Assembly (NCBI GenBank): GCA_015231995.1
Contig: JADGAO010000008.1
Coordinates: forward strand, 1-28,695
Origin: Nitrospinota bacterium
Lineage (GTDB): Bacteria > Nitrospinota_A > UBA7883 > JACRLM01
Direction: 5' to 3'
DNA length: 28,695 bases
The notes beneath the pieces were generated by a model. That model was not told where the DNA came from. It saw only the letters and a program-made list of their open reading frames with translations, and ran no database searches. Shown piece after piece: positions 1,279 to 27,389 of the stretch. The position numbers and the translations under genes are program-made. Numbering within the stretch: position 1 is the first letter of the stretch; the number at the start of each line of letters is the position of its first letter.

Positions 1279-1649
1279 GGGAGAATGGTATATGAAGAGA
1301 GACGTTGGGGCAATACTTCCAAAGTAAACCTAGTCGCTGACTTCTTACCCTCTCCCGCGCTATATCGCGGGAGAGGGCAGGGTGAGGGTGTCAAACAGTG
1401 TTTTTCAAATCCCTCATCCTTTTCAAGTCCCTCAAGTCTTTCAAGTCGCTCAAATGCTCCAAGTCGCTCACCTGCCGTTTCCAGCGCAAATGCTTTGGGT
1501 TATCCTGCGTATCAGCATGTTGAATAAAGGAACATGATGAGAGACGAGATTCGGTTTCCCGTGGCCACCCACCACGGAACCATGACCCTGGAGCGTGGAC
1601 GGCCAGAACGCGGGCGAGCTTTGTTGAGCGTCCGCGCTGTCTTTTTTGC

Positions 1650-1780
1650 GCGTGCGACCATTGTCATTCTGAGGCGAAGCCGAAGAATCCATTTAGAAAA
1701 GAATTTGTTCTACTTTGATCCTTCAGTCGCAAAGCTCCTTCAGGATGACAACGGTCGCAGAGCCTCCCTCAGGATGACAA
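1650..1780. repeat. Dispersed imperfect-palindrome repeat, family A (MITE-like)
   Basis: 'cattgtcattctgaggcgaagccgaagaatccat..gttctactttgatccttc..cctcaggatgacaa' is the reverse complement of the units at 22905-23115 and 21115-21215. Confidence 0.6.
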
Positions 1781-1871
1781 TGGGTAAAAGGCGCCCCCCC
1801 CCGGGGACGACTACGGGGAAGCAAGGGTGATATGTTAGCTGTAGAAAGATGGCAACCTGTTAGGACGCGGA

Positions 1872-2618
1872 ATGATAACGATGAATGAACGATGGTTAAA
1901 CTATACGGCTGAATGCGTTGGAACAGCATTCATGGTCGCCTTCGGACTTTCCTCCGTGGCTCTCTTCTGGAGCTCTTTTTCGCCCATTCCAGCTTTGATG
2001 CCAGACCCGGGCATTCGACGGCTTTTAACAGGCGCGTTATTTGCCACGGGCGTTGTGGCGGTCATTTATTCGCCTGTGGGTCGCAAAACAGGCGCGCATA
2101 TAAATCCTTCGGTGACGATCTCACTATTGTTCCTGAAAAAAATTGCGGCGCCGGACGCCTTCGGGTATGTTATCGCGCAATGTGTCGGCGCAGTATTCGG
2201 CAGTGGAGCGGTCTATCTGGTGTTCAATGTTCTTTTGGGATGGCACGATGGGTTAATGAAAGGCGTAACCCTTCCCGACCCGACATATGGAGCAGGCGCC
2301 GCATTCGCGGGGGAGCTGATATCCACATTCATTCTCATGGCCGCCATATTGGGAATGGCGAATTTCGGCCATCACTCGCGCTATACGGGTCTCGTCGTTG
2401 GCGCGGTCGTCACGCTGGCGGTATGGATTGAAGCGCCGTTTTCAGGAACCAGCCTCAATGCGGCCCGTAGTTTCGGCCCGGCGTTATTGACGGGTGAATG
2501 GAACGCATTTTGGGTTTATGCGGTGGCTCCGCTCGCGGGAGCGTTGATAGCCGCCGTATCCTATCGCCTGATTTTCCGTGGAGCCGGCAAATGCCCTGCC
2601 GGCTGTCGAGGAGCTTGA
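1872..2618 (+). CDS. MIP-family channel protein (aquaporin/glycerol-facilitator-like) with non-canonical NPS / NAA signature motifs
   Basis: 248 aa. N-terminus 'AECVGTAFMVAFG' resembles AqpZ 'AEFFGTFWLVFGG'. First half-helix motif 'GAHINPSVT' (NPS in place of NPA). Second motif 'GTSLNAARSFGPA' (NAA in place of NPA). Hydrophobic six-helix pattern. Confidence 0.8.
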   Translation: MITMNERWLNYTAECVGTAFMVAFGLSSVALFWSSFSPIPALMPDPGIRRLLTGALFATGVVAVIYSPVGRKTGAHINPSVTISLLFLKKIAAPDAFGYVIAQCVGAVFGSGAVYLVFNVLLGWHDGLMKGVTLPDPTYGAGAAFAGELISTFILMAAILGMANFGHHSRYTGLVVGAVVTLAVWIEAPFSGTSLNAARSFGPALLTGEWNAFWVYAVAPLAGALIAAVSYRLIFRGAGKCPAGCRGA

Positions 2619-2632
2619 AATTGACGGCGCTA

Positions 2633-3445
2633 TCACGAACTCCGCTTCATCAGCTCGGCCCTCACCTCTTCGGCGATCAACTCCTCTACACTGGCGTTGA
2701 GGCCAGGGGCCGGGGTCAGCGGGGCTTCCGCGTTCGTGGGACACGCGGAAAATTTGCCGCAGGCGTTGCACGAGTTGCACATGTCGGTAATAATCTTTTT
2801 CTTGGGCCAGCCCATCTTCTCGCCGATGGCCTGCAGGTTCTCTATCTGCGCGGCGGTCAACGGCTTTATATTGCCAATCTGCCGGGCGTGGAAGGTTATC
2901 TCCGCCACATGCTCCATCCGCTCCAGCGTGTTGTATGCGGCGAACACGTCCGTCCCCACCGTGACGGAGCCGTGACGGGCAAGTATCACCGCGTCGAAAT
3001 CCTTGATATGGCTCCTGACGGACTCGGCGACGTCAACCGTCGTAGGCGCGGCGTATTCGGCGGTTGGTATGGAGCCGAGCGTGAAGATGACCTCCGGCAG
3101 AAGGCATTTGGCAAGCGACACCCCAGCCAGCGAGAACGCCACGCACATCGTCGGATGCGCGTGGACGACCGAGTTTACGTCGGGCCGTTCGCGGTAGCAG
3201 GTCAGATGCAGGACCATCTCGGTGGACGGATTTCGCGAGCCTGCGATAAGTCTGCCGTCCATGTCCACCACGATAACGTCACGTTCGGACATGTAACCTT
3301 TGTGTATGCCCGTGGGGGTTATGAGGATTTTGTCGCGGGAGAGGCGCACGGAGACGTTGCCGTCCGTGCTGGATATCCATCCGCGATTGTGTATGCGTTT
3401 GCACACTTCAACGATGTCGCGCCTGCTTTGAGCTTCCGATTTCAT
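2633..3445 (-). CDS. Class II aldolase/adducin-family protein (L-fuculose-phosphate aldolase-like) with C-terminal Cys cluster and putative encapsulation peptide; BMC cargo
   Basis: 270 aa. 'GWISSTDGNVSVR..ILITPTG..HLTCYRERPDVNSVVHAHP' matches the class II aldolase fold including the metal-binding His region. C-terminal extension 'CNSCNACGKFSACP' is followed by a Pro/Ala linker and the amphipathic helix 'SVEELIAEEVRAELMKR'. It is the last gene of the BMC operon, overlapping by one stop/start with the BMC-P gene. Confidence 0.8.
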   Translation of the reverse strand: MKSEAQSRRDIVEVCKRIHNRGWISSTDGNVSVRLSRDKILITPTGIHKGYMSERDVIVVDMDGRLIAGSRNPSTEMVLHLTCYRERPDVNSVVHAHPTMCVAFSLAGVSLAKCLLPEVIFTLGSIPTAEYAAPTTVDVAESVRSHIKDFDAVILARHGSVTVGTDVFAAYNTLERMEHVAEITFHARQIGNIKPLTAAQIENLQAIGEKMGWPKKKIITDMCNSCNACGKFSACPTNAEAPLTPAPGLNASVEELIAEEVRAELMKRSS

Positions 3446-3448
3446 CTT

Positions 3449-3721
3449 CTACGCCTCCAGATCGACACTGTCCACGATCCCCTCGATAACCGAGTGGACG
3501 GGCGCGTTGTTATCCATAAAAAGCTGTCGCGCCGCGTTGCCTTCCACTGCAACCAGCACGACATCACCCGGCCCGGCCTGCGCGAAATCCACCGCCAGGA
3601 AGGTCTGCCCGTCGTCTTTCAGGTTTTCGTCGAGCGGCTGGACGATCATTATTTTGTGTCCGCGATAGACATCGTGTTGCACCGTGGACTGCACGTTGCC
3701 AACAACTCTCGCAAGTTTCAT
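3449..3721 (-). CDS. BMC vertex (pentamer) protein, EutN/CcmL/PduN family (BMC-P)
   Basis: 90 aa; 'MKLARVVGNVQSTVQHDVYRGHKIMIVQPLD..GPGDVVLVAVEGNAARQ' is the canonical EutN/CcmL pattern. Its start overlaps the upstream gene's stop (ATGA at 3718-3721). Confidence 0.85.
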   Translation of the reverse strand: MKLARVVGNVQSTVQHDVYRGHKIMIVQPLDENLKDDGQTFLAVDFAQAGPGDVVLVAVEGNAARQLFMDNNAPVHSVIEGIVDSVDLEA

Positions 3722-3990
3722 GGCGCCTCCCTGTTCACGATATCCACGATGCCGACGATGCCAGCGTCCACCGGGGTGAACGTCTCGTCGAGCGCCAGCG
3801 TGGCCTCTCTGCCAGCGACGTATGTAACGATGTCGCCTGGGCCGGACTGGATCGGGTCGGTTGCGATGATGGGCGAGCCTTTGGGTTTGCCGGCGTCGTC
3901 TATCGGCTGGATGATGAGTAGTTTCACCCCTTCGAGCGCCTCGTGTTTCACCGTCGCCACCACTCGTCCTATTACCTTGGCAAGATGCAT
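3718..3990 (-). CDS. BMC vertex (pentamer) protein, EutN/CcmL/PduN family (BMC-P)
   Basis: 90 aa; 'MHLAKVIGRVVATVKHEALEGVKLLIIQPID..GPGDIVTYVAGREA'. Second of three BMC-P paralogues. Confidence 0.85.
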   Translation of the reverse strand: MHLAKVIGRVVATVKHEALEGVKLLIIQPIDDAGKPKGSPIIATDPIQSGPGDIVTYVAGREATLALDETFTPVDAGIVGIVDIVNREAP

Positions 3991-3994
3991 GTCG

Positions 3995-4234
3995 TCAATC
4001 TCTATAATAGTATTTCATCGCTGTCCGGGGTGTTCTTCACCCCGGACTCTTATCCACGTGAACCTAACTTCGTCCCCCTTACCAAGGGGGACCGCCACGA
4101 AGTGGCGAGGGGGTTTAACCTCCCGGCGCTTTGCGCCACCCCCCTTATCAGGGGGGCTACCCCTCCGGCGCGATTACGCTCCACCTTCCCGATTTTCGGG
4201 GAGGAAAAAGAACACCCCGCCACGCGAAACCCGC
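3995..4234. repeat. GC-rich multi-hairpin intergenic element (family B), inverted partner of 7298-7545
   Basis: Contains 'cccccttaccaaggggga', 'ccccccttatcagggggg', 'ccggggtgttcttcaccccgg' and 'cccgattttcgggg'. The reverse complement aligns at roughly 75% by eye with 7340-7500 ('gcgccgggaggttaaaccccctcgcc..' vs 'gcgccggaggggttaggaaacccccgctcgc..'; 'cccctgataagggg' in both). Confidence 0.5.
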
Positions 4235-4792
4235 TTACAGCAGTTTGAGGTTTATGTCTTCATGCGGGTTGGGGATGATCTCTCTGCACACGAGCGTCCC
4301 TGCGGATTTGATTATCGCCACACCCGCCTCGACCGCCGCTTCCAGCTCGTTAAGCGGCCCGGTCATCGTGTAAAAAGATTTGCCGCCAAGCCCGTTGGCC
4401 ATGCGGACTTCGATCAGGCTAACGCCAGCCGCTTTCACCGCCGCGTCTGCGGAAAGTATCACAGAGGCCACGGTAAACGTCTCCACCACGCCGAGCGCAT
4501 CCATTTTGGGAACCACAGCGCAAGCCTGCATCGCAGGGATAAGCTGATGGCTCGCGTATGGCAGGAAAAGCTCGTCCACCACCATCTCCCCGCCGGTCGC
4601 CACGCCGATCCGATAAGACTCTTCCACCGCCGCCGTTTCCCCGGCGATGAGGATCATATATTTGCCGGGGCAAACAGTGCGCGCGTCCAGCAGGCGCACC
4701 GGGGCTTTCTTTACCATGTCGTCGGCGGTCTTCACCCCGCGCGCGATCGAGCGCAGTTCGATAAGCGCCACAGCTGGTTCTTTGAGGGTCAT
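4235..4792 (-). CDS. BMC-T shell protein with tandem BMC domains, PduT-like (resembles Haliangium BMC-T1); candidate Fe-S site
   Basis: 185 aa. Two BMC-domain cores: 'ALIELRSIARGVKTADDMVKKAPV' and 'ALGVVETFTVASVILSADAAVKAAGVSLIEV'. C-terminal 'IIPNPHEDI' parallels PduT 'VIPRPHEAM'. A Cys precedes the PGK motif ('TVCPGKYMIL') at the position of the PduT cluster ligand. Confidence 0.8.
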   Translation of the reverse strand: MTLKEPAVALIELRSIARGVKTADDMVKKAPVRLLDARTVCPGKYMILIAGETAAVEESYRIGVATGGEMVVDELFLPYASHQLIPAMQACAVVPKMDALGVVETFTVASVILSADAAVKAAGVSLIEVRMANGLGGKSFYTMTGPLNELEAAVEAGVAIIKSAGTLVCREIIPNPHEDINLKLL

Positions 4793-4901
4793 ATGGTTGA
4801 CAAAGCCTCGAATTGCCTATAAGATATATTCAGATTTGAAGGGATGAATGTCGGCCTCAGCGCCGTGTGAATTCCGGGTTTCCCGGAGGTTCCTAGTCCC
4901 T

Positions 4902-5960
4902 TCATTTTTTGTTTCCCCAAACATAATCGTTGTTTGTATAAACACGGTTTTCTCCGGGGCGTATCTCCTCAATGCGATCAACTTTGCCCCAGATATACTC
5001 GATATACCGCTCCTCGCCCCTTTCATAATATCTTTGCAACGCCCACAAACAGTAATCCACAACTTGCAACATAGGGTTTTGTGAAGGGTAGGTGCCGTTC
5101 AGCTGAATAAGTTTGCCTGAACGAACATGTTCACGTTGCATCTCATTAAGACGCAACATGTGTTTGACCTGATCCATAATTATCTTATGGTGCTTTAGAT
5201 TGCGAGATACTTCTTTCTGTTCACCTTCCAGGTCATCAAGAATGATCGTTACGTTCATATTCCCCGTCGCGCAATCTTCGGGTTGTATAAGTTGAAGCTT
5301 ATTGTCAATATCAGCCATTCTTTTCCTGATATCTTTTAATAGTTCATCGCCGAAGGCGAGGTGTGTTTCAACAGTATTGAAAATCTTTTCCCGCTCGTCA
5401 TAAAGAGCTTTCTCAAGAGCTTTTGTTTTTTCCCGGTTTCCCCGGAAAGCAAACAAAATATCTAGCCAATGGTTGGGATAATCTTTATTCAGCAAAAACG
5501 GCTTGAACAACTCGCGCGTCATTAATTCATAAGATTCGCTCTCTTTGTATCGGTAATTTTTATCCTCCAAATTCCTCGTCCGCACTGCGGCAAGCGTATC
5601 CTCCTTGTTTATTATGACGGCGGAAAACTTAATATCGAGTTTTTCAATAAACCTGTAAACCTTCCATCGAGCTTCGGGTATTTCATCTTTTGCGTGGAAT
5701 AACATTGCGGTCTTATTCGCCGAAGCCTGCATGGAAGGAACTTTCTTGAAATAGGGATCGCTACACAATTCTGATCTCAAGGAATCCAGTTCTTTTTCTA
5801 TGTGATTAGTTTCTTCGGCCGAGACAAAACCTAAAATGAAATATTTCGAGCACCCATCCGTTCCAATGATAACGTCACCGTGACGATTAAAAATAGCGCC
5901 ATCGCCGGTCTCATCCACGAAACAGCGCAATACTTTTATTGGATGTGGTGAAGAACTCAT
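4902..5960 (-). CDS. DUF3800-like protein (putative RNase H-fold/DExx-motif enzyme), compositionally foreign (low GC)
   Basis: 352 aa. N-terminal 'LRCFVDETGDG' resembles the DUF3800 'yiDESG' motif; C-terminal 'LQVVDYCLWAL' resembles its 'LQxaD' motif (family assignment from memory). GC is about 40% against about 60% in flanking genes. ATG at 5958-5960 overlaps the TGA of the PduS-like gene (ATGA). Confidence 0.5.
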   Translation of the reverse strand: MSSSPHPIKVLRCFVDETGDGAIFNRHGDVIIGTDGCSKYFILGFVSAEETNHIEKELDSLRSELCSDPYFKKVPSMQASANKTAMLFHAKDEIPEARWKVYRFIEKLDIKFSAVIINKEDTLAAVRTRNLEDKNYRYKESESYELMTRELFKPFLLNKDYPNHWLDILFAFRGNREKTKALEKALYDEREKIFNTVETHLAFGDELLKDIRKRMADIDNKLQLIQPEDCATGNMNVTIILDDLEGEQKEVSRNLKHHKIIMDQVKHMLRLNEMQREHVRSGKLIQLNGTYPSQNPMLQVVDYCLWALQRYYERGEERYIEYIWGKVDRIEEIRPGENRVYTNNDYVWGNKK

Positions 5961-7297
5961 TTCACTTGCCCGCTAATCCCGATGTGGCTTGTACTAATAG
6001 CGGTCACCACGCCGGAAATCGAGGCGTGGTATCTCGCGCCAAGTTTGCCCTCCGGTATCTCGCCGATCAACTGGCCCTTCGTCACTTTTTCACCCTGTTT
6101 CACAACGGGGAGCGCTGTAGCTCCGATATGCTGATTCAAAGGTATCCGCACGGACGATACAGGCCACGGCGCAGGGTCGAACGGCGCCTTAACGTCGTAC
6201 TCGCTAAGTCCGAGCCGTCTCATCAGCTTATCCGCCGGGACGCCACGGAACGGGCGGTAAGAATCTTGCGTCAGGTCTGCTCGCCTGTGCGGGTTTTTGA
6301 TTCCGGCCTCTCTCATCCGGCGTTTGAACTCCCGGTATATCACGCGGGGAGAGAGGAACATCGGACACGCCCACAGGTCACACAATCCGCACTCGCAACA
6401 GAGCCACGCCGACGTTATCGTGTCCGAATCCAGGTCGCGGTCATAGTTGATGACGCGCATTATTTTGTGAGGCTCCAGCCTGTGTCCCAAAAGGTAACGA
6501 GGGCAGAAATCGGTGCAGTACCGGCACACTTCGCAGGCGGATTTGCCGATGCGTATCTCCGTGGAGAGCGGACGCGCCATACGCATGACGTGGCTGTGGT
6601 CTTTCGGCAAAACGAAAAGCCCGCCGGTGGTCTTGGTAACGACCTCGTTCATATCCTCCGTGACACGTCCCATCATCGGGCCGTTGACCAGGATGACGTA
6701 GTCGTCTATCTTCACACCAAGGCGGGGGATGATTTCGCCAAACGCGGTTCCCACAGGGATGAACGCCACCTTCGGGTTGTCCATAGCCCCGCCAAGCGTT
6801 ACAATCCGCTCCGTCACCGGTTTGCCGTTCACGGCTTCTGCGATGTTCACCATCGTGCCCACGTTGATAACGACCACGCCGACATCCAGCGGGATGCCGC
6901 CTTCCGGCACGGCGCGGCCTGTGGCCTCGAATACAAGATAATGTTCATCGCCCGCAGGGTACACGTTGTCCAGCTCCAGCACGCTTACGCCATGCTTGCC
7001 AGCCTGATCCCGAAACGACTTCACCGCGTGGTCATATTTTTGTTTCACGCCGATGACGCCTTTAACCTCGGAGCCTGTCCGTCCCGAAATCTCATCTACG
7101 ATTTTTCTAAGCGTCGCCACGATATCGCCAGCGCGCGTTTCCATCAGATGAAGGTCGCCGCACATGAGCGGCTCGCATTCCGCGCCGTTGACGATGACAG
7201 TGTTGACGGCGGAGGCGAGTTTTATGTGAGTCGGGAACCCCGCGCCACCCGCGCCAATTACCCCGGCCTGCCGCGCTAAATCGGCTACAGTGGGCAT
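5957..7297 (-). CDS. RnfC/NuoF-like Fe-S flavoprotein, PduS-like (BMC-associated oxidoreductase)
   Basis: 446 aa. N-terminal Gly-rich nucleotide-binding motif 'VIGAGGAGFPTHIKL' (complex I 51K / RnfC). Two Cys clusters 'CEVCRYCTDFCP' and 'CCECGLCDLWACP' (2x[4Fe-4S]). C-terminal barrel-sandwich-like 'VKQGEKVTKGQLIGEI..ISGVVTAI'. Lies inside the BMC operon. Confidence 0.75.
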   Translation of the reverse strand: MPTVADLARQAGVIGAGGAGFPTHIKLASAVNTVIVNGAECEPLMCGDLHLMETRAGDIVATLRKIVDEISGRTGSEVKGVIGVKQKYDHAVKSFRDQAGKHGVSVLELDNVYPAGDEHYLVFEATGRAVPEGGIPLDVGVVVINVGTMVNIAEAVNGKPVTERIVTLGGAMDNPKVAFIPVGTAFGEIIPRLGVKIDDYVILVNGPMMGRVTEDMNEVVTKTTGGLFVLPKDHSHVMRMARPLSTEIRIGKSACEVCRYCTDFCPRYLLGHRLEPHKIMRVINYDRDLDSDTITSAWLCCECGLCDLWACPMFLSPRVIYREFKRRMREAGIKNPHRRADLTQDSYRPFRGVPADKLMRRLGLSEYDVKAPFDPAPWPVSSVRIPLNQHIGATALPVVKQGEKVTKGQLIGEIPEGKLGARYHASISGVVTAISTSHIGISGQVK

Positions 7298-7545
7298 AAT
7301 GCGGGATTGGTGTTGTTTGTCAAAGATCGGGTCGCGCCTCTTTTTGCCCCCGCCCCTTGCGGGAGAGAGCTTGCCCTGAGTCTTCCGAAGGGGTGGCTCC
7401 CCTGATAAGGGGAGGTGACGCGTCTTCGCGCCGGAGGGGTTAGGAAACCCCCGCTCGCTTCGCTCGCCGCCCCCTTGTCAGGGGGCCTAAGAACGTTACG
7501 CAAAGCCTCCCTAGGCACGGGGGACAAATGGAAGATTGGCATAAT
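7298..7545. repeat. GC-rich multi-hairpin intergenic element (family B), inverted partner of 3995-4234
   Basis: 'ctcccctgataaggggag', 'cccccttgtcaggggg', 'gcgccggaggggttaggaaaccccc'. Alignment with the reverse complement of 3995-4234 is given under that feature. Confidence 0.5.
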
Positions 7546-9003
7546 TCAAATGATCCTGAATCTGTCTTTTAACGTGCAACGGCGTTCCCGGGTGAAGTTT
7601 ATTGCCGTCGTCAGGCCCTCTCCGGTGGGGCTTGCTATCGTGAAAGATGTGTAACCCTCGCCGCCCCATCCGAGGCCGGCGTAGCTTGGGCCGTTCTTTA
7701 TGAAAAGGGAGGTGTTTATCGCACGCGCCATTTTCGACAGGTTGTCCACGTTCGTCGAATGCATCACTGCGGTGTGGCCGAAACCGTGTTCCACCTTTCT
7801 GGCGAGCTCGATACCTTCGTCCACATCGGCGACGCGCACGAGCGGCAACACAGGCGTCAACTGCTCCATTATGACGAGCGGGTTGGTTTTCTCCGCTTCG
7901 AATACGATGAGGCGCACATCCTCGGATGTCTCCACGCCGATGGCGCGTAATATCTTGCCCGCGTCTTTGCCCACCCAGCTTTTGTTCATCACCCCATGGT
8001 CGCCGGGGCCTTGCGGGGCGCGTTCTATTATGAGCTTCTCAAGTTTTTTCACCTGATGCGGGTTAAGCTCGTATGCGCCCGATTTTTTCATTTCGCGCTT
8101 AAGCGCGTCGGCGACCTTGTCCACGCAGATAAGGACTTTTTCCACTATGCACACTATATTGTTGTCGAACGAGGCTCCGTCAACCACATGCTTGGCCGCT
8201 TCGGCGATGTTGGCGGTTTCGTCAACGACGACGGGAGGGTTGCCCGGCCCTGCCGCGATTACTTTCTTGCCGGAGTTCATCGCCGCTTTCACGACGGCCG
8301 GCCCTCCGGTGACGACAAGCAGGCGTATGTCGGGATGGCGCATAAGCTCCCCGGCGCTCTCCACAGTGGGGCTTGCGATTTCCGTAAGCAGGTTCGCCGG
8401 GCCGCCAGCAGAGATTATCGCTTCGTTGAGCAGGTTGATCATGTACGAGGTGACGTTCTTCGCCGTCGGATGGGCGTTGAAGACGACCGCGTTGCCGCCT
8501 GCGATCATCCCAATGGCGTTGCACAGCACCGTCTCCGTAGGGTTCGTGCAAGGCGTGATGGAGCCGATGACCCCGTATGGCGCGCGTTCCATCAGCGCTA
8601 TGCCGTCGTCGCCTGTGAAGGCGCGAGGTTCCAGAATCTCGATTCCCGGCGTTTTTTCGACAGCGAGCGTGTTTTTGAGTATTTTATCGGCTACTCGGCC
8701 CAATCCTGTCTCCTCGACGGCCATCTTCGACAGGTTAGGTATCTCGCGCCGCACGGCTTCACGCATGGCGTTAATCATCAGCCTGCGTTCCGCCAGCGGG
8801 TATGAATCCAGCGAGATGAACGCCGCTTTTGCAGAAGCCACGGCCTCGTTGACAGTCGCGTAACTGCCGATACGTTTTCCGTTACTCGTGGGAATGGTTT
8901 GAGCTGGTAAAACCGGGGCCAGTTTCGCTCCGGCTTTGGAGGCGGAAAGCCTCGCCGCGACCCGTTCCACGATGCCCGCTATCTGGTCTTTGTCCAGCGT
9001 CAT
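7546..9003 (-). CDS. Aldehyde dehydrogenase (CoA-acylating, PduP/EutE-like) with N-terminal encapsulation peptide
   Basis: 485 aa Aldedh-family fold ('GSYATVNEAVASAKAAF..', 'ASPTGEG', conserved NAD-binding Gly-rich segments). N-terminal amphipathic helix 'DQIAGIVERVAARL' plus an Ala/Pro/Ser linker precede the catalytic domain. RBS 'GGAGG' sits 8 nt upstream. Confidence 0.85.
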   Translation of the reverse strand: MTLDKDQIAGIVERVAARLSASKAGAKLAPVLPAQTIPTSNGKRIGSYATVNEAVASAKAAFISLDSYPLAERRLMINAMREAVRREIPNLSKMAVEETGLGRVADKILKNTLAVEKTPGIEILEPRAFTGDDGIALMERAPYGVIGSITPCTNPTETVLCNAIGMIAGGNAVVFNAHPTAKNVTSYMINLLNEAIISAGGPANLLTEIASPTVESAGELMRHPDIRLLVVTGGPAVVKAAMNSGKKVIAAGPGNPPVVVDETANIAEAAKHVVDGASFDNNIVCIVEKVLICVDKVADALKREMKKSGAYELNPHQVKKLEKLIIERAPQGPGDHGVMNKSWVGKDAGKILRAIGVETSEDVRLIVFEAEKTNPLVIMEQLTPVLPLVRVADVDEGIELARKVEHGFGHTAVMHSTNVDNLSKMARAINTSLFIKNGPSYAGLGWGGEGYTSFTIASPTGEGLTTAINFTRERRCTLKDRFRII

Positions 9004-9018
9004 GAATCAAGCCTCCGG

Positions 9019-9333
9019 TCAGACATCCGCCGTTTTCGCAGACGCATACTTTGTGTAAACGGTCTTGTCGTCAACGTCCCATGTGTCCACGATGCCCATG
9101 ACGACAGCGTCCACAGGCTTGCCGTTGGTGATATCCGTCTGCCGCGCGGACGAGCCTGTGGCGTACAGCACCACCTCGCCAAGCCCCGCGCCAACCGAAT
9201 CCGCCGCCACGACGTAACCTTTGCCCACCTCGCCTGTGACATCCACGTTGCGCACGAGAAGCAGTTTTAACCCCTCAAGCGATTCCGCCTTGCGGGTCGA
9301 GACAACCGTCCCGGCCACTTTTCCGAACAACAT
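9019..9333 (-). CDS. BMC vertex (pentamer) protein, EutN/CcmL/PduN family (BMC-P)
   Basis: ATG at 9331-9333 gives '[49 protein letters not shown]'. The longer ORF-track N-terminus (to 9423) is not family-like and overlaps the BMC-H gene. Confidence 0.8.
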
Positions 9334-9337
9334 GGCT

Positions 9338-9631
9338 TCACTCCGCCGCGATGGCTTTTCTGCCCAGCGGAAGCGCAAGGTCGATGTTGCTGTGCGGCCT
9401 GGGGATGACATGGACGGAGACAAGCTCGCCCACTTTCTCCGCCGCGCGCGAACCGGCCTCGGTTGCCGCCTTCACAGCCGCAACGTCGCCGCGCACGATG
9501 GCGGTGACATACCCTCCGCCGATTTTCTCGTATCCCACCAGCTCGACCTTCGCCGCTTTCAGCATGGCGTCGGAGGCTTCGACCATGCCGACAAAACCCT
9601 TGGTCTCGATCATTCCCAATGCGTCTGACAT
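9338..9631 (-). CDS. BMC-H hexameric shell protein (PduA/EutM/CcmK family)
   Basis: ATG at 9629-9631 gives '[63 protein letters not shown]', a near-consensus BMC domain. The upstream TTG in the ORF track is unlikely to be the start. Confidence 0.9.
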
Positions 9632-9655
9632 CTTTGACAATCTCCAAAAAAGACG

Positions 9656-10291
9656 TTATTCAGCTTTTCCCTTTTTCGCTGCTTTTCCCGTGACGCTCTC
9701 CAGAGCTTTCACGGCGGCGTCTGCGGCGGAGTCGATCTCCGCTTCAGAGCCTGACATGTAAAGCCGTCCGAACGCGCCGAACGGCCGCACTTCCACTAGT
9801 TTTACGTTGGCCGCTTTCTCCGCCTCGTTCGCGGCGAAAATGGCGTAACCGGCAGGCTCTGTCTCCAGTATGAAAAGCGACTCGCCCGGCAAAATCATGG
9901 AGCCGCTTTTGTTCCTGTTGATGAGCTGGCACTGGTAAGCCTCCATGCTCCGTATGATCTGGTTGGCGACGATGGTGGGCTTTATCCTGTCGGCCTCTGT
10001 GACGCCCAGATGGTCGAGTATCGCCCTCCCGGCGCTTATAACCTCGCCTTTGTCCATGTCGTGCACTTCAAGAAGGCCGTAAGCGCGTTCGACAATCTGC
10101 ACGGCTGGCTGGACTTTCGTGGCTTTCAGAGCCACGTCGGTCACGCGGTTGATGGCCAACCCCGGAGCAATCTCCACAAACAGGGACGCAACCCCCGGCA
10201 CGGGCAGGAAACCTTTGGCGGTGGAGCCTATGTAGGAGGCCAGCTGATCCTGGAGGCTGTCGAGGAATATGAAAGTCCTAAGTGTGATCAT
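9656..10291 (-). CDS. BMC-T shell protein with tandem BMC domains, CcmP/CsoS1D-like (resembles Haliangium BMC-T2)
   Basis: Start '[71 protein letters not shown]' and second domain '[47 protein letters not shown]' closely parallel, from memory, the Haliangium ochraceum BMC-T2 sequence ('[62 protein letters not shown]'). ATG at 10289-10291. Confidence 0.75.
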
Positions 10292-10337
10292 TTTTTCAAA
10301 TACCCCTGTCAATTCCCGTTGTATGTTTCTTGCGCGA

Positions 10338-11153
10338 TCAATACTGCTTCGCTGTTATCACGTCTTCGATCTTCCGTATGCTGGTGAGCGCCCTCTCGCC
10401 GCGCCGCAACCCCAACGCCACATGCAGAAGGTCTATGATGCTCGCCTGCGCGATTCTGGAGGCCAAAGCCTCGCTCCGAAACCTCGTCTCCTTGCTCGAT
10501 GTCACCAACGTCACGTCCGACGCTTTCGCAAGCGGCGACAACAGGCTGTTCGTCACCGCAACGGCGCGAGCGCCCGCGTTGCGCCCGACCCGCACCGTCT
10601 CCACCGGGTCCTTGGTGGAGCCGGAATGGCTTATCGCCAATATCGCGTCGCCTTTTTTAAGCAGGGCCGCCTCCATCATCTGCAGGTGTCCGTCTGTCTG
10701 CAAAGTCACCGGAAGCCCAAGCCGCATAAGCTTCGTGTACGCGTCGAACGCGATGGGAGCCGACGTGCCTACGCCGATAATAAGAGTTCTACCCGCATTG
10801 TCCAGTATGCCGATGGCCCGCTCCACGGAACGTGGGTCTATCACGGCGAGCGTGTCTTTTAATGTGCTGATGTTGGCTTCGAACACCTTGCCCGCCAGCG
10901 CGGCCACGTCGTCTTTTTCGGTGATAGCCTCGTGGATCGCGCCTGCGATGGGTGTTACAAGCTCACGGGCCAGGGCTATCTTAAGGTCGGCGAAACCGAG
11001 GAAATTGGCCGCCCTGCAAAACCGTATGACCGTGGCCTCGGATACACCCGCTTCCCGCGCCACCTCGCCGACAGACATGCCGATGGCGTTCTCCGCGTTT
11101 TTCAATATGAACTCGCCCACCTTGCGCTCCGCCGGTAGAAGGGACGGCAACAT
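10338..11153 (-). CDS. RpiR/MurR-family transcriptional regulator (HTH_6 + SIS phosphosugar-binding domain)
   Basis: From ATG at 11151-11153: '[45 protein letters not shown]' is the canonical RpiR N-terminal HTH. SIS domain '[35 protein letters not shown]'. Co-oriented and 25 bp upstream of the first shell gene. Confidence 0.8.
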
Positions 11154-11467
11154 GCCGCTCACTTTCCCGGTGGCGCCCGGCCCGTGGGCGCGGCTGACTG
11201 CTCCCCTTGTCTTTGGCCTACGCTGTGATCTTCCGGTTGCTATGGTCATATCCATTCCACTTTCCATGAGGCTCTTCGCAGTCTCGATGATTATAGTCCG
11301 CGCCATTCCGCGTGTCAAGTAAAACTACATATCAATTAAGTATCCATGAAGTAAAATTTCATAGAACGCATGGTTGCAAGGTGGCCGCTGACCAGTTTTG
11401 ATTTTAGGGCGTTGCGGGGGCAATCTTGGGGGGCGTGGAAGAAATGTCCGGCGCTGAGTGGGACGCC
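11154..11467. promoter_or_regulatory. Large intergenic/5' region upstream of the BMC regulator and operon, AT-rich core with small inverted repeats
   Basis: The 11319-11380 stretch 'taaaactacatatcaattaagtatccatgaagtaaaatttcatagaacgcatgg' is markedly AT-rich in a GC-rich genome. It contains the IR 'atgaa-N7-ttcat' and the outer IR 'ccatg..catgg'. Likely promoter and operator region; no specific site is proven. Confidence 0.3.
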
Positions 11468-14993: not shown

Positions 14994-17500
14994 GCCGGCT
15001 CGCCCTCCACGCCCGGCTCGTCCCCGGTTTCGTCAGGGGAACCCTCGTTGTCCTGTTCGCTTTCCTGCGCGTCCATCACGCCCACGGACACTACCCTGTC
15101 TCCCTCGCCGAGGTTTATCACCCGGACGCCTTTGGTGTTCCTGCCGACGACGGAAACGTCGCTTGCGTTCATGCGTATGGCCACGCCGTCTTTGCTCATG
15201 ACAAGCAGGTCGTGCGTGTCTTTCACCAGCTTTATGCCGACAACGCCTCCCGACTGTTCGTCGCATTTGATGTCTATGACCCCTTTGCCGGCCCTCGCCT
15301 GGACGGGGTATCTGCTGGTCTCCGACCTTTTGCCGTATCCATCTTCCTTTAGGGTGAACACAGTTTCGTCGGCGTCGCCTTCGGACGGAAGCGCGACCAT
15401 TCCCACCACCAGGTCGCCCTCGTCGAGCCTGACGGCGCGCACGCCCCTGGTGTCTCTGCCGATGGGCCTAAGGTCGCTTTCAGGGAAGGTGATGGACATA
15501 CCTTGCTGTGTGGCCACAAGTATGTTTTTGCTTCCGTCGGTCACGGTGACGGCTATCACGTCGTCGCCTTCTTCAAGGTCTATGGCTATGATGCCGCCTG
15601 CGTGGATGCGGGCGAACGCTTCCATGTCGGTCTTCTTGATGAAACCTTTCCTTGTGGCGGTGACAAGGAACGTTCCCGGATCGAAACCGGAAACCGGGAA
15701 AACCGTCTGCACCTTTTCATCCGGCTGTAGCTGGATAAGGTTGACCACGGCCTTGCCCTTGCCTGCGCGGGAGGATTCCGGCGCTTCGTAAACCTTCGTC
15801 CGAAACACCCTGCCGGTGTTTGTGAAGAATAGGAGGTTGTCGTGGGTAGAGGCCACGAACAGCTCTTTAAGATCGTCCTCTTCTTTCATGCTTATGCCGC
15901 GAACGCCTTTGCCGCCCCGTTTTTGCGCCTTGTACAGGTCGAGCGGCGTGCGTTTGATATAACCCTGGCTGGAGATCGCCACGACCATGTCCTCTTTGGC
16001 TATGAGGTCTTCGATGTCAACCTCGTTCTCCAGCGGAACCAGCCTCGTGCGCCTCTCGTTGCCGTATTTGGCCTTTATCTCCGCCAGTTCTTCCTTGATC
16101 ACGCGGAGCTTTTCCTCTTCGTGGTCGCGGATGTAAACAAGCCGCTCGATGATCCTGTTCGTCTCGGCCAGGTCGTCGGCTATTTTCTGGCGTTCAAGCC
16201 CGGTCAAGCGCTGGAGCCTTAACTCCAGTATCGCCTTGGCCTGAGCTTCGGAGAACGACCAGTTTTCAATAAGCCCTCTCCTGGCCTCATCTGGGGAGGC
16301 GGATTTGCGTATGAGGGCGATGACCTGATCCAGATGGTCGAGCGCCTTGGCGTAACCTTCCAGTATGTGCGCCCGCTCCGAAGCCTTGCGAAGCTCGAAA
16401 AGCGTCCGGCGGGTGACTATCTCCACCCGGTGGCTTACGAAATGACGCAGAATGTCTTTTAAAGTCAACTGCTTGGGTTGGCCGTCCACAAGGGCGAGCA
16501 GGATTACGCCGAAAGTCTCCTGCATCTGCGTATGTTTGAAAAGCTGGTTCAACACGATTTGCGCCATCGCGTCGCGTTTAAGCTCCACAACCACCCGCAT
16601 TCCTTGCCGGTCGGATTCGTCCCGCAGGTCGGATATGCCCAGAATCTTCTTGTCGCGCACGAGGTAGGCTATCTTCTCGACGAGCCTGGCCTTGTTGACC
16701 TGATACGGTATCTCGCTGATTACGATCCGTTCCCGGTCGCCTTTTTCCATAGGCTCGATGTGCGCCTTGGCCCGCATGATGATAAGCCCCCTGCCGGTGT
16801 GGTAGGCGGAGCGTATCCCTGCGGTTCCGTGTATCTCGCCAAAGGTCGGGAAATCCGGCCCGGGGATTACCTTCATCAGTTCGTCTATCGTGATATGCGG
16901 GTTGTCTATAAGGAGCATTAACCCGTCTATCACTTCGCTGAGGTTATGCGGGGGTATGTTGGTAGTCATGCCGACGGCTATGCCGCCAGACCCGTTTATA
17001 AGCAGGTTAGGGGCGCGAGCCGGAAGAACCGTCGGCTCGGACTCCGCCTCGTCGTAGTTGGGGATGAAATTTACGGTGTCCTTATCGAGGTCGGAGAGCA
17101 TCTCGTCGGAGATGCGGGCCAGCCGCGCCTCGGTGTACCTCATTGCGGCGGGCGAGTCACCGTCCACCGAGCCGAAGTTGCCCTGTCCGTCCACCAGCGG
17201 ATACCGCATGGAGAAGGGCTGGGCCATACGCACCAGAGCCTCGTAAACAGGCTGGTCGCCGTGTGGGTGGTACTTTGCTATCACGTCACCGACCGTTCTG
17301 GCCGATTTCTTGTAGGCTTTGTTGTGATGGTTTCCTATGGAGTGCATCGCGAACAAAATCCTGCGGTGCACAGGTTTGAGACCGTCACGGACATCCGGCA
17401 GGGCGCGGGAAACTATGACGCTCATTGAGTATTCGAGGAAGGAGGAACGCATCTCGTCCTCGATGGCTATCGGGATTATGCTAAGGCCGCTTTCGTTCAT
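14990..17500 (-). CDS. gyrA: DNA gyrase subunit A
   Basis: From ATG at 17498-17500 ('[56 protein letters not shown]'). GyrA C-terminal beta-pinwheel repeats and acidic tail follow. RBS 'AAGAG' at -9. Confidence 0.95.
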
Positions 17501-17724
17501 CTTAACTCTTTGAAGTTTCGAATGTTGTCGTGTGAATATAAAAGAGCTATTGTAGCGCTTTCGCTCTTCTTTTGGAACCACTATTTTGATTTATGGCGGG
17601 AAACGTTCCGGCAGGCCTCTAATCGGGTTTTGTGGGATAATTTGGATAATCCTCTCTTGCCGCTGTTAGAGGCGCTCTTCGGGCGGTCACCCAGAACATT
17701 GCGCAGAAGCGAACCTGAAAGAGT

Positions 17725-17935
17725 TTGTCATTCTTGTGCGCCCCTTGTCATTCTGAACGAGCGCAGTGAAGTGAAGAATCCATCGAAGGAACATTTTGTT
17801 CTACTTTGATCCTTCGGTTGCCGGAGGCTCCCTCAGGATGACAAAAACATTGTCATTCTGAGCCCTTCGCTTTGCTCAGGGTAAACTCCGCGAAGAATCC
17901 ATCAAAAAATTTTTACTCTACTTCGATCTTTAACC
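17725..17935. repeat. Dispersed repeat family A (about two units plus the 'gtaaactccgcgaagaatccatc' module)
   Basis: 'gtcattctgaacgagcgcagtgaagtgaagaatccatc..gttctactttgatccttcgg..ggctccctcaggatgacaa..gtcattctgagcccttcgctttgctcagggtaaactccgcgaagaatccatc' matches units at 1650-1780, 21108-21275 and 22866-23115. Confidence 0.6.
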
Positions 17936-17996
17936 CGCCCTCTTGTCGAACAAGGGGCCGGGGTGAAGAACACCCCGGCATCCCACGATAGCCTCT

Positions 17997-19445: not shown

Positions 19446-19617
19446 TGTCGCTCCCTCACCATTTTTGAAATGGGTTCACATGCAAGATCGCCCGTTCCCC
19501 CCTTTGGGAGAGGGCCGCCGCGATTACAACAAGACACACCAGCCATGTATTGCGCCAATACGATATCACAAGAGGGCGCCCCACGCCAGCCTGTCGATAA
19601 CCAAACGATTTCCATAT

Positions 19618-19675
19618 TTTGTCATCCTGAGGGAGCTCTAGCGACCGATCAAAGTATAATTGAACATTCTATCGT
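19618..19675. repeat. Half-unit of repeat family A followed by GC hairpin 'gcgggcg ggac gcccgc'
   Basis: 'ttgtcatcctgagggagctctagcgaccgatcaaagta' is the left arm of the family A unit. Confidence 0.5.
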
Positions 19676-19739
19676 TGCGGGCGGGACGCCCGCACTCCCA
19701 GGGAAAAAGCGCATGATTGGACTCCCTCGACCTGTTACA

Positions 19740-19944: not shown

Positions 19945-19975
19945 TTGGCGTTGAAAAACGTCATTTGGTTATAAT
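19945..19975 (+). promoter_or_regulatory. Candidate sigma70 promoter for lipoprotein gene 20001-20516
   Basis: Consensus -10 'tataat' at 19970-19975. Possible -35 'ttggcg' (19 nt spacer) or 'ttgaaa' (13 nt spacer). RBS 'GGGAGG' at 19985-19990. Confidence 0.35.
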
Positions 19976-20000
19976 GTTAATTTTGGGAGGATGTTTCGTA

Positions 20001-20516
20001 ATGAACAAGGTTTTTCTAAGGTACGCGTTGGCCGTCATGTTGGTGGTGACGCCTGCGATGATAGCCGCATGTGGTTCTTCATCTTCGTCTACGCCTAGTA
20101 GCTCCAGCACTAGCGGCGACTCTTCCACTAGCGGTGGCACGACCACGAGCGGCGGAACGACAACGAGCGGCGGCACCAGCGGTGACACTTCCACGAGCGG
20201 TGGAACGACCACCAGCGGCGGAACATCCACCAGCGGTGGCACGACCGGCACACCGGCCCCCGCCACTTGCACAGAGGGCGCGGCTGACGCTTATTACGGA
20301 ACGACTGTTACTCCGAATACGGCGATCACCATCACTGAAACCAGCGGCACGGTCATCACCACAACCAGCGGCGCCGACGGCAAGTTCTGCGTGACGGGCA
20401 ACCCGGCTGGCGGTTATGGTTCATCCACCGCCGCCGGCGCGATGGTCACCAGGCCGACCAACGGCTCCTGCGCCACTGGCGGGGCGTTGTGTCACAGCCT
20501 TCTGCCCCTGCGGTAG
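20001..20516 (+). CDS. Lipoprotein with Ser/Thr/Gly-rich repeat linker and C-terminal beta-sandwich-like (CarboxypepD_reg-like) domain; haem-less paralogue of the downstream gene
   Basis: ATG at 20001 preceded by GGAGG. Signal peptide plus lipobox 'MIAAC'. Linker '(TSGGTTTSGG)n'. C-terminal domain 'CTEGAADAYYGTTV..ITETSGTVITTTSGADGKFCVTGNPAGGYG..GSCATGGALCH' aligns with the downstream paralogue, but CTGCH is replaced by CTEGA. Confidence 0.6.
   Translation: MNKVFLRYALAVMLVVTPAMIAACGSSSSSTPSSSSTSGDSSTSGGTTTSGGTTTSGGTSGDTSTSGGTTTSGGTSTSGGTTGTPAPATCTEGAADAYYGTTVTPNTAITITETSGTVITTTSGADGKFCVTGNPAGGYGSSTAAGAMVTRPTNGSCATGGALCHSLLPLR
20075..20250 (+). repeat. Imperfect tandem nucleotide repeats (about 24-30 bp) encoding the (TSGGTTTSGG)n linker
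   Basis: Reiterated 'acgagcggcggaacgacaacgagcggcggcaccagcggtgac..acgagcggtggaacgaccaccagcggcgga'. Could undergo slippage or length variation. Confidence 0.5.
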
Positions 20517-20560: not shown

Positions 20561-20596
20561 CGGCTCCCGGCGCTCATGCCGGGAGCCGTTTTTTTT
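20561..20596 (+). terminator. Rho-independent terminator (10-bp perfect stem, 8-nt loop, T8 tail)
   Basis: 'cggctcccgg cgctcatg ccgggagccg tttttttt', 45 bp after the stop of the 20001-20516 gene. Confidence 0.7.
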
Positions 20597-21090: not shown

Positions 21091-21107
21091 GGCCACTGCA
21101 AAGGATC

Positions 21108-21275
21108 CAGGATGACAATGTTCTTGTCATCCTGAGGGAGGCTCTGCGACCGAAGGATCAAAGTAGAATAGAATATTCTTTTTGATAGATTCTTCGCGTT
21201 GCTCAGAATGACAAACTCTGATGGATTCTTCGCGGAGTTTACCCTGAGTCCTCGAAGGGCTCGCAATGACAATCG
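21108..21275. repeat. Dispersed repeat family A (one full palindromic unit plus the 'gatggattcttcgcggagtttaccctgag' module)
   Basis: 'ttgtcatcctgagggaggctctgcgaccgaaggatcaaagtagaatagaatattctttttgatagattcttcgcgttgctcagaatgacaa'. Confidence 0.6.
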
Positions 21276-22865: not shown

Positions 22866-23115
22866 CGTCATCCTGAGGGGGCTTCTCTTTGTCATTATGA
22901 GGGAGCTTTTTTTGTCATCCTGAGGGAGCCTTAGCGACCGAAGGATCAAAGTAGAACAGGATATTCTATTTGATAGATTCTTCGGCTTCGCCTCAGAATG
23001 ACAATACCACCGCTCAGAATGACAATGTTTTTTGTCATCCTGAGGGAGCCTTAGCGACCGAAGGATCAAAGTAGAATAAAGCATTCTTTTGATGGATTCT
23101 TCACTTCGTTCAGAA
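22866..23115. repeat. Two tandem full units (plus a partial) of palindromic repeat family A; the 3' unit supplies the stop codon of the heptosyltransferase gene
   Basis: Units at ~22905-23010 and ~23025-23115: 'ttgtcatcctgagggagccttagcgaccgaaggatcaaagtagaa(N5)attct(n)tttgat(r)gattcttc(N3-4)tcg(NN)tcagaatgacaat'. Left and right arms are imperfect reverse complements, giving a ~90-nt hairpin potential. Confidence 0.65.
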
Positions 23116-26374: not shown

Positions 26375-26435
26375 CAATATTGTCATTCTGAGGCGAAGCC
26401 GAAGAATCCATCTAAAAAACAATTTGTTCTACCCG
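26375..26435. repeat. Half-unit of repeat family A
   Basis: 'cattctgaggcgaagccgaagaatccatctaaaaaacaatttgttctac' is near-identical to 1660-1710. Confidence 0.5.
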
Positions 26436-26443
26436 GTTCATCT

Positions 26444-27210: not shown

Positions 27211-27243
27211 AAATCTGTAGGGGCGACCCGGTGGGTCGCCCCT
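27211..27243. repeat. Perfect 13-bp-stem hairpin (family C) between divergent genes
   Basis: 'gtaggggcgaccc ggt gggtcgcccctac'. No T-tract on either side, so it is not a canonical terminator. A degenerate copy lies at 21058-21090. Confidence 0.4.
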
Positions 27244-27389
27244 ACAATATGCAAAACTCCATCATAAATCCCAATCAGCCGCGTCCCGTATTAAGTTAAA
27301 ATGTATAATACGTCAAAATGCGGTCTTGTTGAAAATCAGGATAGTTTAAGCTGGTTTTGTTTGTCCATACCGGCATTTGTGGAGCGATG

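Follow-up and report, generated by a model that had tools for sequence, protein, structure and literature searches.

Small hairpin-rich repeats of bacterial chromosomes have been described under several names. Miniature inverted-repeat transposable elements, or MITEs, in the definition used here (PMC3049150, PMC10969869), are AT-rich (PMC3049150). Repetitive extragenic palindromes (REPs) have as their hallmark an unpaired tag, GTAG or CGTC, that is conserved on one side of the palindrome (PMC3733652), and in PMC2817692 they are described as flanking their cognate RAYT (IS200/IS605-like Y1) gene. The BOX elements of Streptococcus, with the architecture boxA-(boxB)n-boxC, have constant end modules and an internal unit that is absent, single or in tandem, and that varies between orthologues (PMC3049150). 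In this work we analyzed two multi-hairpin elements, A and B, that occupy two spacers of a bacterial microcompartment (BMC) operon in an uncultured member of the Nitrospinota. The window, that is, the whole stretch of DNA analyzed, is the complete 28,695-bp contig of a metagenome-assembled genome (MAG). We conclude that A and B are probably two separate insertions of dispersed, lineage-specific, non-coding hairpin repeats, and that these repeats form a previously undescribed family of small hairpin-rich elements, which is distributed genome-wide and is lineage-specific to an uncultured Nitrospinota group.

Elements A and B in the microcompartment operon

The BMC operon lies on the - strand (2633-11318); among named homologues, those nearest to its PduS-like protein come from Nitrospinae MAGs. 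In order of transcription its parts are:

Start of the operon, - strand: RpiR-type regulator, BMC shell genes and an EutN gene
7546-9003, - strand: aldehyde dehydrogenase (AldDH) gene
7298-7545, - strand: spacer B
5957-7297, - strand: gene for a PduS-like flavoprotein
4902-5960, - strand: DUF3800 gene
4793-4901, - strand: 109-nt spacer
4235-4792, - strand: gene for a PduT-like tandem BMC protein
3991-4234, - strand: spacer A
End of the operon, - strand: two EutN genes and a class II aldolase gene

A preliminary description of this DNA, made from the sequence alone, had presented A and B as an inverted pair of GC-rich repeats of ~190 bp, and as two of only three large spacers in the operon. The latter count is correct: the spacers that exceed 100 nt are A, B and the one at 4793-4901, which is part of the DUF3800 cassette described below. 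The hairpins on which the comparison was based were located at 4141-4154 (ccccttatcagggg) and 7400-7413 (cccctgataagggg), and the shared blocks at 4109-4129 (gggggtttaacctcccggcgc) and 7429-7453 (gcgccggaggggttaggaaaccccc). Homology of A to the reverse complement of B was recovered when the window was compared with itself by blastn, which aligned 4068-4168 to 7385-7491 on the opposite strand (74.5% identity over 110 columns, E 4.7e-11) and yielded a second piece with 80% identity over 46 columns. The Smith-Waterman score of A against the reverse complement of B was 51, and 500 dinucleotide shuffles gave 12.1 +/- 2.0, with a maximum of 20; the score in direct orientation was only 25, because the modules are palindromes. 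With the covariance model of the family, B scored 102 bits on the - strand, and A scored 63 bits on the + strand versus 51 bits on the - strand; given this strand specificity, the inverted relationship is real. The proposed length stands only in part, since A and B are homologous but the part that can be aligned with confidence covers ~110-135 nt and not 190-240 nt. Core identity between the two is only 67.5%, the cores falling into different sub-families, and the longest exact match between A and the reverse complement of B is 15 nt. Both elements are GC-rich to a modest degree (59-61% GC versus 55.7% for the window; cores of the family, 66-74%) and, in agreement with the multi-hairpin folding ascribed to them, fold far better than shuffled sequences on either strand (z -2.6 to -7.3).

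The architecture of the operon was compared in seven orthologous BMC operons, whose PduS genes are 79-91% identical in nucleotide sequence to that of the window. Designated by their locus numbers, they show the following states:

L049: DUF3800 present; B site empty; A site empty
L058 (the closest, 91%): DUF3800 present; B site empty; contig ends before the A site
L051: DUF3800 absent; B site filled, in the same place and orientation as in the window; A site empty
L050, L052, L056 and L057: DUF3800 absent; B site empty; A site empty

From the empty sites the limits of the inserts can be placed as listed below. The family (alpha) orientation is the strand on which the core is written, which is the + strand of the window for A and the - strand for B.

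4011-4234, + strand (family strand, antisense to the operon): element A, whole insert, 224 nt, from the empty-site comparison
4018-4037, + strand: left subterminal inverted repeat of A, TCGCTGTCCGGGGTGTTCTT, overlapping the hairpin CCGGGGTG-TTCTT-CACCCCGG at 4023-4047
4208-4227, + strand: right subterminal inverted repeat of A, AAGAACACCCCGCCACGCGA, from local alignment of the ends
4235-4243, - strand: authentic PduT end, sense CTGCTGTAA; putative target duplication of A, left copy
4002-4010, - strand: degenerate PduT end, sense CTATTATAG (Leu-Leu-stop); putative target duplication of A, right copy
7301-7537, - strand (family strand, sense to the operon): element B, whole insert, 237 nt, from the empty-site comparison
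7538-7545, - strand: left target-site duplication of B, sense ATTATGCC, immediately following the stop codon of AldDH
7293-7300, - strand: right target-site duplication of B, sense ATTATGCC, including the PduS start codon
4793-5960, - strand: DUF3800 cassette, i.e. the gene at 4902-5960 plus the 109-nt spacer; Pfam PF12686; a separate indel outside the repeat family

Each of the two elements has direct repeats of its own at its flanks. In the case of B, the AldDH-PduS junction measures 4 nt in L049, L050, L052, L056 and L058, and the 8-bp repeat ATTATGCC matches at 8/8 positions in the window and at 7/8 in L051, which carries the B insert minus one sub-unit; the empty sites show ..ATGCC.. once only. 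For A, the orthologous PduT-EutN junction is only 11-15 nt long in L049, L050, L051, L052 and L056, and homology of the flanks to these empty sites resumes at 4010 and 4235. The putative 9-bp duplication of A is degenerate: CTATTATAG agrees with CTGCTGTAA at 5/9 positions, all four differences being transitions, and with the corresponding CTGTTATAG of L052 at 8/9, and the conserved spacer and the EutN start come right after it. A local alignment of the first 60 nt of A with the reverse complement of its last 60 nt matched 18/21 positions, and the long-range closing stem is visible in predicted folds. The terminal module of A (..ACACCCCGCCAAGCGG..) also ends the elements found at the NrdR-CysG site in L040, L054 and L055.

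Two sequences with a resemblance to transcription signals lie within the inserts. At 4214-4230 (- strand) inside A, just past the PduT stop codon, a hairpin weakly resembling a terminator precedes GTTCTTTTTC; neither element has another T-rich tail. A promoter-like TTGACA-16-CATTAT (10/12) at 7296-7323 (- strand) lies inside the end of B and faces PduS; its -10 box overlaps the PduS start codon, and the match is not conserved in the orthologous copy of L051.

The DUF3800 gene is compositionally foreign, as had been noted (codon log-odds only 10.6 for 352 aa). About a dozen codons at the end of PduS (5957-5995) are replaced with the cassette, so that ..TEVNAKWIGITT* becomes ..TAISTSHIGISGQVK*; the junctions of the cassette and the replaced C-terminus are identical in the window, L049 and L058. 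The DUF3800 protein evolves faster than its neighbours (75% amino acid identity to L049 versus 88-96% for the flanking genes).

The suggestion that A and B bracket a composite insertion carrying the foreign gene is contradicted by these distributions, given that DUF3800 occurs without B in L049 and L058 and without A in L049, and that B occurs without A or DUF3800 in L051. In all the relatives, PduS and PduT are ancestral genes of the operon. The related suggestion of an invertible 3.1-kb block did not hold either. In the sister assembly GCA_015234085.1 (contig JADFWQ010000020.1, locus L001), which is 99.8% identical over window positions 1405-9270, A and B are unchanged and have the orientation seen in the window, so that two independent assemblies agree; a Pfam search of 4235-7297 found no recombinase domain. 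Inversion of the block is also unlikely because three operon genes would leave the transcribed strand, and because of the 15-nt limit on exact identity. As judged from the orthologues, the operon was compact in its ancestral state, and A, B and DUF3800 each represent an indel of their own; the bracketing of the foreign gene by A and B is a coincidence and not the sign of a composite transposon or an invertible segment.

DUF3800 is common to the window, L049 and L058 and absent from L050 and L056, and the window is closest to L058, L056 and L050. On these sequences, the patterns of B and DUF3800, at odds with one another and with sequence similarity, imply recombination among populations, or repeated precise loss, which for B may have taken place between the 8-bp repeats.

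The repeat family and its insertion sites

A third copy, C, was found in L001 (8087-8196) upstream of rimP-nusA, with the module order of A and B and a score of 47 bits with the covariance model R1. A loose pattern, AAGGGGN{9,17}GCGCCGGN{5,11}AAACCCCC, gave 25 single matches among 185,579 GTDB species representatives; these fall in unrelated taxa and are attributed to chance because they show no similarity beyond the pattern, and at the pattern stringency used the family is absent from these representatives. A tighter pattern based on A, B and C had 23 matches in the JGI metagenomes, on 22 contigs that all come from metagenome Ga0315281. One Ga0315281 contig overlaps the gyrA region of the window with 88% nucleotide identity (4-fold degenerate sites ~67% identical); by this comparison the contigs belong to a related species, or to two, since L031 and L032 are 90% identical homologues. 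With R1, 32 distinct copies were recognized in the 170 kb searched, and further copies were present in loci added later, including L054, L059 and L060. The copies adjoin unrelated housekeeping genes (enolase, MqnC, FBPase, NrdR, CysG, histidine kinases). The search for further copies proposed in the preliminary description therefore points to a general, REP/BIME-like dispersed family with no preference for flanking the 4235-7297 block. The whole window had no match in Rfam 15 at the gathering thresholds, and a permissive search of 3950-7600 gave only chance-level hits (E >= 0.14); blastn against plasmids and phages gave no match to the family, and the literature search found nothing relevant on repeats in Nitrospinota.

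An alignment of 24 copies defines a core of 90 nt in which five short, GC-rich stem-loops, named hpI to hpV, follow in an invariant order. The consensus hairpins and the cores of A and B are as follows:

hpI: GCCCCCT-GACA-AGGGGGC
hpII: GCGAGC-GAA-GCGAGC and variants
hpIII: GGGGTT-TCCT-AACCCC
hpIV: GGCGCG-AAGA-CGCGCC
hpV: CTCCCCT-TRTC-AGGGGAG
4072-4156, + strand: core of A; cmsearch with R1, 63.1 bits (E 4e-10) on + and 51.4 on -
4072-4092, 4093-4107, 4109-4124, 4126-4138 and 4139-4156, + strand: hpI, hpII, hpIII, hpIV and hpV of A, in family order; perfect stems, fold z -7.3
7397-7487, - strand: core of B; cmsearch with R1, 102.1 bits (E 2e-17) on - and 43.4 on +
7397-7414, 7418-7433, 7436-7451, 7453-7467 and 7469-7486 (+ coordinates), - strand: hpV, hpIV, hpIII, hpII and hpI of B, from the alignment and pair counts
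7397-7436, - strand: hpIV-hpV sub-unit of B, ~40 nt, missing from the orthologous L051 copy in the pairwise alignment; a variable tandem module
17957-17979, + strand: lone terminal hairpin module GCCGGGGTG-AAGAA-CACCCCGGC, from the repeat search; its loop is flipped with respect to 4023-4047

One palindrome underlies both hpI and hpV, its loop being flipped between them. Standard pairs occupy 90.9% of the cells of the core pairing, versus 35-65% when the partners are slid, and compensatory changes were observed in six pairs, a covariation reached by 0/500 shuffles. The most informative hairpin is hpII, in which the second pair alternates between C-G and U-A (11/8 sequences) and the fifth between G-C and A-U (16/7); its two central positions form a tandem G.A mismatch in most copies and Watson-Crick pairs in two sub-families. 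Counts of G.U versus A.C (15 versus 7) were taken as an indication of the functional strand, but these are partly alignment artefacts, the G.A tandem is inherited, and the result is not decisive.

Many copies continue beyond hpV with additional tandem units of 39-42 nt [AACCCC..-hpIV-ACC-hpV]. The hpIV-hpV unit is absent in L051, single in B, repeated in L048, and reaches 4.5 copies in L028 (period 39, 97% matches); in L035 and L059, entire elements are arrayed in tandem (period 101-108 nt). The hairpin modules joined outside the core differ between copies in a mosaic-like manner, giving inserts of 160-240 nt. Insertion of the core into the loop of a GGGGTG-TTCTT-CACCCC hairpin, hinted at by GTTCTT...AACCCC flanks, is not supported because the 5' arm is missing in most copies, and a REP-like GTAG that adjoins the CCCCCCTGATAAGGGGGG hairpin of A on its 5' side (GTGG in B) was dropped, the consensus of the 24 copies being GTTG.

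Insertion could also be followed at the NrdR-CysG site, which was chosen for its compact insert. L053 is empty at this site (TAA is directly followed by ATGAGC), L040 and L054 carry an element between two copies of ATGAGCC, i.e. a 7-bp duplication, and L055 has a related insert with the same ends and without the five-hairpin core. By analogy with transposase-mobilised MITEs, the duplication of 7-9 bp of target suggests that integration took place at a staggered cut. The HUH enzymes that mobilise REP/REPIN or IS200/IS605 elements would not be expected to leave such duplications.

The core is conserved well beyond neutral sites (88-100% versus ~66%). Between the window and L051, the orthologous B copies share 87.7% identity, including a run of 62 core nucleotides without a change, and the 4-fold degenerate sites of AldDH, PduS and PduT are 65-67% identical between the same two loci; the B core is also 87-96% identical to 22 non-orthologous copies of the Ga0315281 species (4-fold sites ~67%). 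The core of A is 64-77% identical to 22 metagenome cores and therefore represents a divergent sub-family. To judge by these comparisons, what keeps the core constant is selection, gene conversion between copies, or a conserved master from which copies go on spreading. With regard to transcription, the alpha strand is sense in ~11 copies and antisense in ~17 (p 0.34); there is no bias, and a strand-specific RNA function is accordingly unlikely. Enrichment between co-directional genes was not significant (15/16 versus a background of 83%, p 0.22).

Like MITEs, the family is small (160-240 nt), non-coding, multi-copy, highly base-paired and intergenic, it is present or absent at orthologous sites, and it is flanked by target-site duplications of 7-8 bp. 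It differs from them in being GC-rich instead of AT-rich. Its inverted repeats are inconsistent and subterminal, B and L040 having none beyond the internal hairpins, and no parental transposase insertion sequence was found, its only gene-bearing relative encoding a DUF559 nuclease. With REP/BIME/REPIN elements it shares short GC-rich palindromes (hairpins of 13-21 nt) in clusters, a mosaic structure, lineage specificity, the intergenic position of all copies, their location between co-directional genes in operons, compensatory changes in the stems, tandem arrays comparable to BIME-2, and the use of one palindrome with opposite loop orientations (hpI and hpV). In contrast to REPs, none of the five hairpins has a conserved GTAG or CGTC beside it in the 24-sequence alignment (A has CTAC next to hpV, where the family consensus is GCAAC, reverse complement GTTGC), five different hairpins follow in fixed order instead of one REP in alternating orientation, and there are target duplications; no RAYT was found among the Pfam-annotated genes of the fetched loci, which cover a small part of the genome. 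The resemblance to BOX lies in the constant end modules and in the internal unit that is absent, single or tandem and varies between orthologues; the phylum and the base composition are different, the modules are discrete GC hairpins, and no sequence similarity to boxA, boxB or boxC is expected. The family thus behaves as a small non-autonomous interspersed repeat and is not a clean member of any named class, with REP-like GC hairpins under compensatory evolution, BOX-like variable modules and MITE-like target duplications.

The copies landed in either orientation in the few-nt stop/start junctions of tightly packed operons and duplicated 7-8 bp of the target; under the reading that we favour, they would have integrated at a staggered cut. 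A and B entered the operon at different times and independently of the DUF3800 cassette, and their inverted arrangement would be the 50% outcome of two random orientations. The hairpins themselves are presumably selected, maybe because they are needed for a mobilising or maintaining enzyme to recognise a copy, or for the host to tolerate it. In the mRNA they would probably act as incidental barriers to 3'-exonucleases, as REP and BOX do, uncouple translation and shift the relative stability of the segments. The odd large spacers of an otherwise overlapping operon are explained in this way as parasitic insertions of recent date, by which translational coupling is broken at two junctions, and the tempting story of a foreign gene delivered by a composite transposon or in an invertible cassette is removed.

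Several observations weigh against this reading. B is common to the window and L051 (PduS 84% identical in nucleotide sequence) and absent from the closer L058 (91%) and L056 (88%), so a simple history of a single insertion needs precise loss or recombination. Filled and empty states were compared at only three sites, one of them with a degenerate duplication, and terminal inverted repeats are convincing only in A (18/21), being absent or weak in B and in L040. No transposase or other mobilising gene was identified in the loci examined, and a core conserved this strongly could reflect a function for the host and not selfish maintenance. The copy counts come from contigs and not from a complete genome, and are not per-genome figures. 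The orientation counts depend on a home-made codon log-odds gene caller trained on Pfam-supported genes, which replaced a length-greedy caller that picked shadow open reading frames (ORFs), e.g. 2498-4822 (+).

Alternative explanations

The most probable alternative concerns a nuclease gene. The sole gene between two element arrays in L035 encodes a 127-aa DUF559/Vsr-like PD-(D/E)XK endonuclease (Pfam E 2e-27), and its closest homologues, in L059 and L060, are embedded likewise; the three genes are 83-87% identical at the amino acid level and belong to three related genomes outside the window:

L035, 320-703: DUF559 ORF
L059, 3001-3384: DUF559 ORF
L060, 967-1350: DUF559 ORF

In all three, the ORF sits exactly between the arms of hpIII, with the layout hpI, hpII, 5' arm of hpIII (GGGGGTTTCCTGA), TAATG, ORF, AAATA, 3' arm ACCCCCC and a hairpin of the hpV type, and co-oriented elements or arrays flank it on both sides. 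The D..ExD..H motif is intact, and the gene contexts are different: one copy lies between an SBP gene and SMC, one upstream and one downstream of a histidine-kinase gene. Enzymes of the Vsr fold include homing endonucleases (PMC3424549; PMC3239194). The short elements might then be deletion derivatives of, or the homing target for, a DUF559-carrying element of ~0.6 kb, whose nuclease mobilises or maintains the family as RAYTs do for REP/REPIN; we regard this as possible but doubtful. It is equally tentative that the repeats are the non-autonomous form of such an element, with DUF559 nested in the loop of hpIII as its only gene and a nuclease that recognises the core. The arrangement may fit internal-deletion derivatives, a homing-type nuclease that colonised the repeat, or equally one inherited chance capture, from which three genes of 83-87% identity could descend. 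Neither the window nor L001 has a DUF559 gene, only about one copy per metagenome was found, and there are no annotated repeats around ycjD of E. coli, whose product YcjD is a DUF559 protein, so that there is no general precedent. Nor do we know of a lone PD-(D/E)XK nuclease that carries out strand transfer. In the literature searched, the papers mentioning DUF559 show no link to repeats in title or abstract. More distant DUF559 genes include several in Trichlorobacter lovleyi. If the association were functional, it would be a partnership of nuclease and repeat analogous to RAYT-REPIN, with a different enzyme fold and leaving target duplications of 7-8 bp, and it would give a first function to the widespread orphan family DUF559; it is in any case a testable lead to the enzyme behind such families.

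An unlikely alternative is that the elements are cis-acting RNA structures selected as stabilisers, as processing sites, or as the two halves of an RNase III-type duplex, formed by pairing of A with B across 3.1 kb, that tunes the stoichiometry of shell and enzymes. The sense strands fold at -118.6 and -106.8 kcal/mol (z -4.8 and -3.1), the core is conserved above the neutral rate, and the sense RNAs cofold at -258.5 versus -225.4 kcal/mol separately, 92 of the pairs being intermolecular. Effects on mRNA decay or processing are known for REP, ERIC and Correia elements, and by analogy with these and with BOX an orientation-independent effect of the hairpins on mRNA decay or translational coupling is plausible (PMC3049150; PMC3733652). 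On the other hand, five of the seven related operons work without either element, the family stands beside unrelated genes in either orientation, with A antisense and B sense, and there is no match in Rfam and no T-tract terminator in A or B apart from the one weak site. Transcription would reach A only ~3 kb after the hairpins of B had formed, a delay that would kinetically disfavour the long-range duplex; by the model it is thermodynamically possible and kinetically unlikely. The idea in the preliminary description that the elements may in addition serve RNA processing or stability finds neither support nor contradiction in these data: the hairpins are stable in both orientations, and the family has no orientation bias with respect to transcription.

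It is less probable still that a host protein (a nucleoid protein, gyrase or polymerase) binds the copies at the DNA level and that they are retained for chromosome organisation. Conservation of the core across species beyond the neutral expectation, the orientation-independent, intergenic position of the sites and the precedent of the E. coli BIMEs (PMC2817692) would agree with it, but site occupancy is patchy among very close relatives, the compensatory changes keep pairing and not a fixed duplex sequence, and there is no known protein partner.

The view of the preliminary description, that the pair marks a composite insertion bringing PduT-DUF3800-PduS or DUF3800 alone, or a substrate for inverting the 3.1-kb block, draws on the fact that two related, inverted elements flank a block with a compositionally foreign gene, and it is hardly credible given that flanks and cargo have independent histories and that a 15-nt identity and cores of 67.5% are below the needs of RecA-type recombination.

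Other repeats and reading frames of the window

Repeats such as these fragment MAG assemblies and generate spurious ORFs. A second, AT-richer family of interspersed repeats occupies six other intergenic regions of the window in both orientations, with modules that include TTGTCATYCTGAGG, GAAGAATCCAT and CGACCGAAGGATCAAAGTAGAA; its sites are:

1-35, 1660-1780, 17740-17904, 19617-19677, 21098-21272, 22888-23121 and 26378-26449, both orientations: AT-richer repeat family

The contig starts inside one copy of this repeat, and L001 diverges from the window at 1405, beside such a cluster. Further long perfect palindromes occur in intergenic DNA at 27216-27246, 1348-1377, 153-173 and 20561-20588, e.g. 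TGTAGGGGCGACCCGGTGGGTCGCCCCTACA, with a 14-bp stem. Half-copies of the palindrome at 27216-27246 directly abut cores of the hairpin family in L037, L038 and L047, which makes this palindrome another module of the mosaic system. The MIP-ABC spacer measures 594 nt in the window versus 65 nt in L050.

Within the BMC operon, the ORF at 9000-9242 has no Pfam match. The EutN homologue of the relatives (104 aa) is in the frame of the ORF at 9019-9423, which corresponds to the L001 gene 1-252, and window positions 9000-9333 are 85-94% identical to the relatives in nucleotide sequence, yet the frame 9000-9242 reaches only ~31-38% amino acid identity. The GTG-started ORF of gyrA (window 17500-17581) is probably too long, since the L028 homologue has an in-frame stop upstream; conservation starts at MNESGLS, and the likely start is the ATG near 17500. 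The ORF at 19965-20516, without Pfam match, holds an 18-nt tandem repeat of the ACGAGCGGCGGA type at 20091-20258, with at least 6 units, that codes for a Thr/Ser/Gly-rich stretch.

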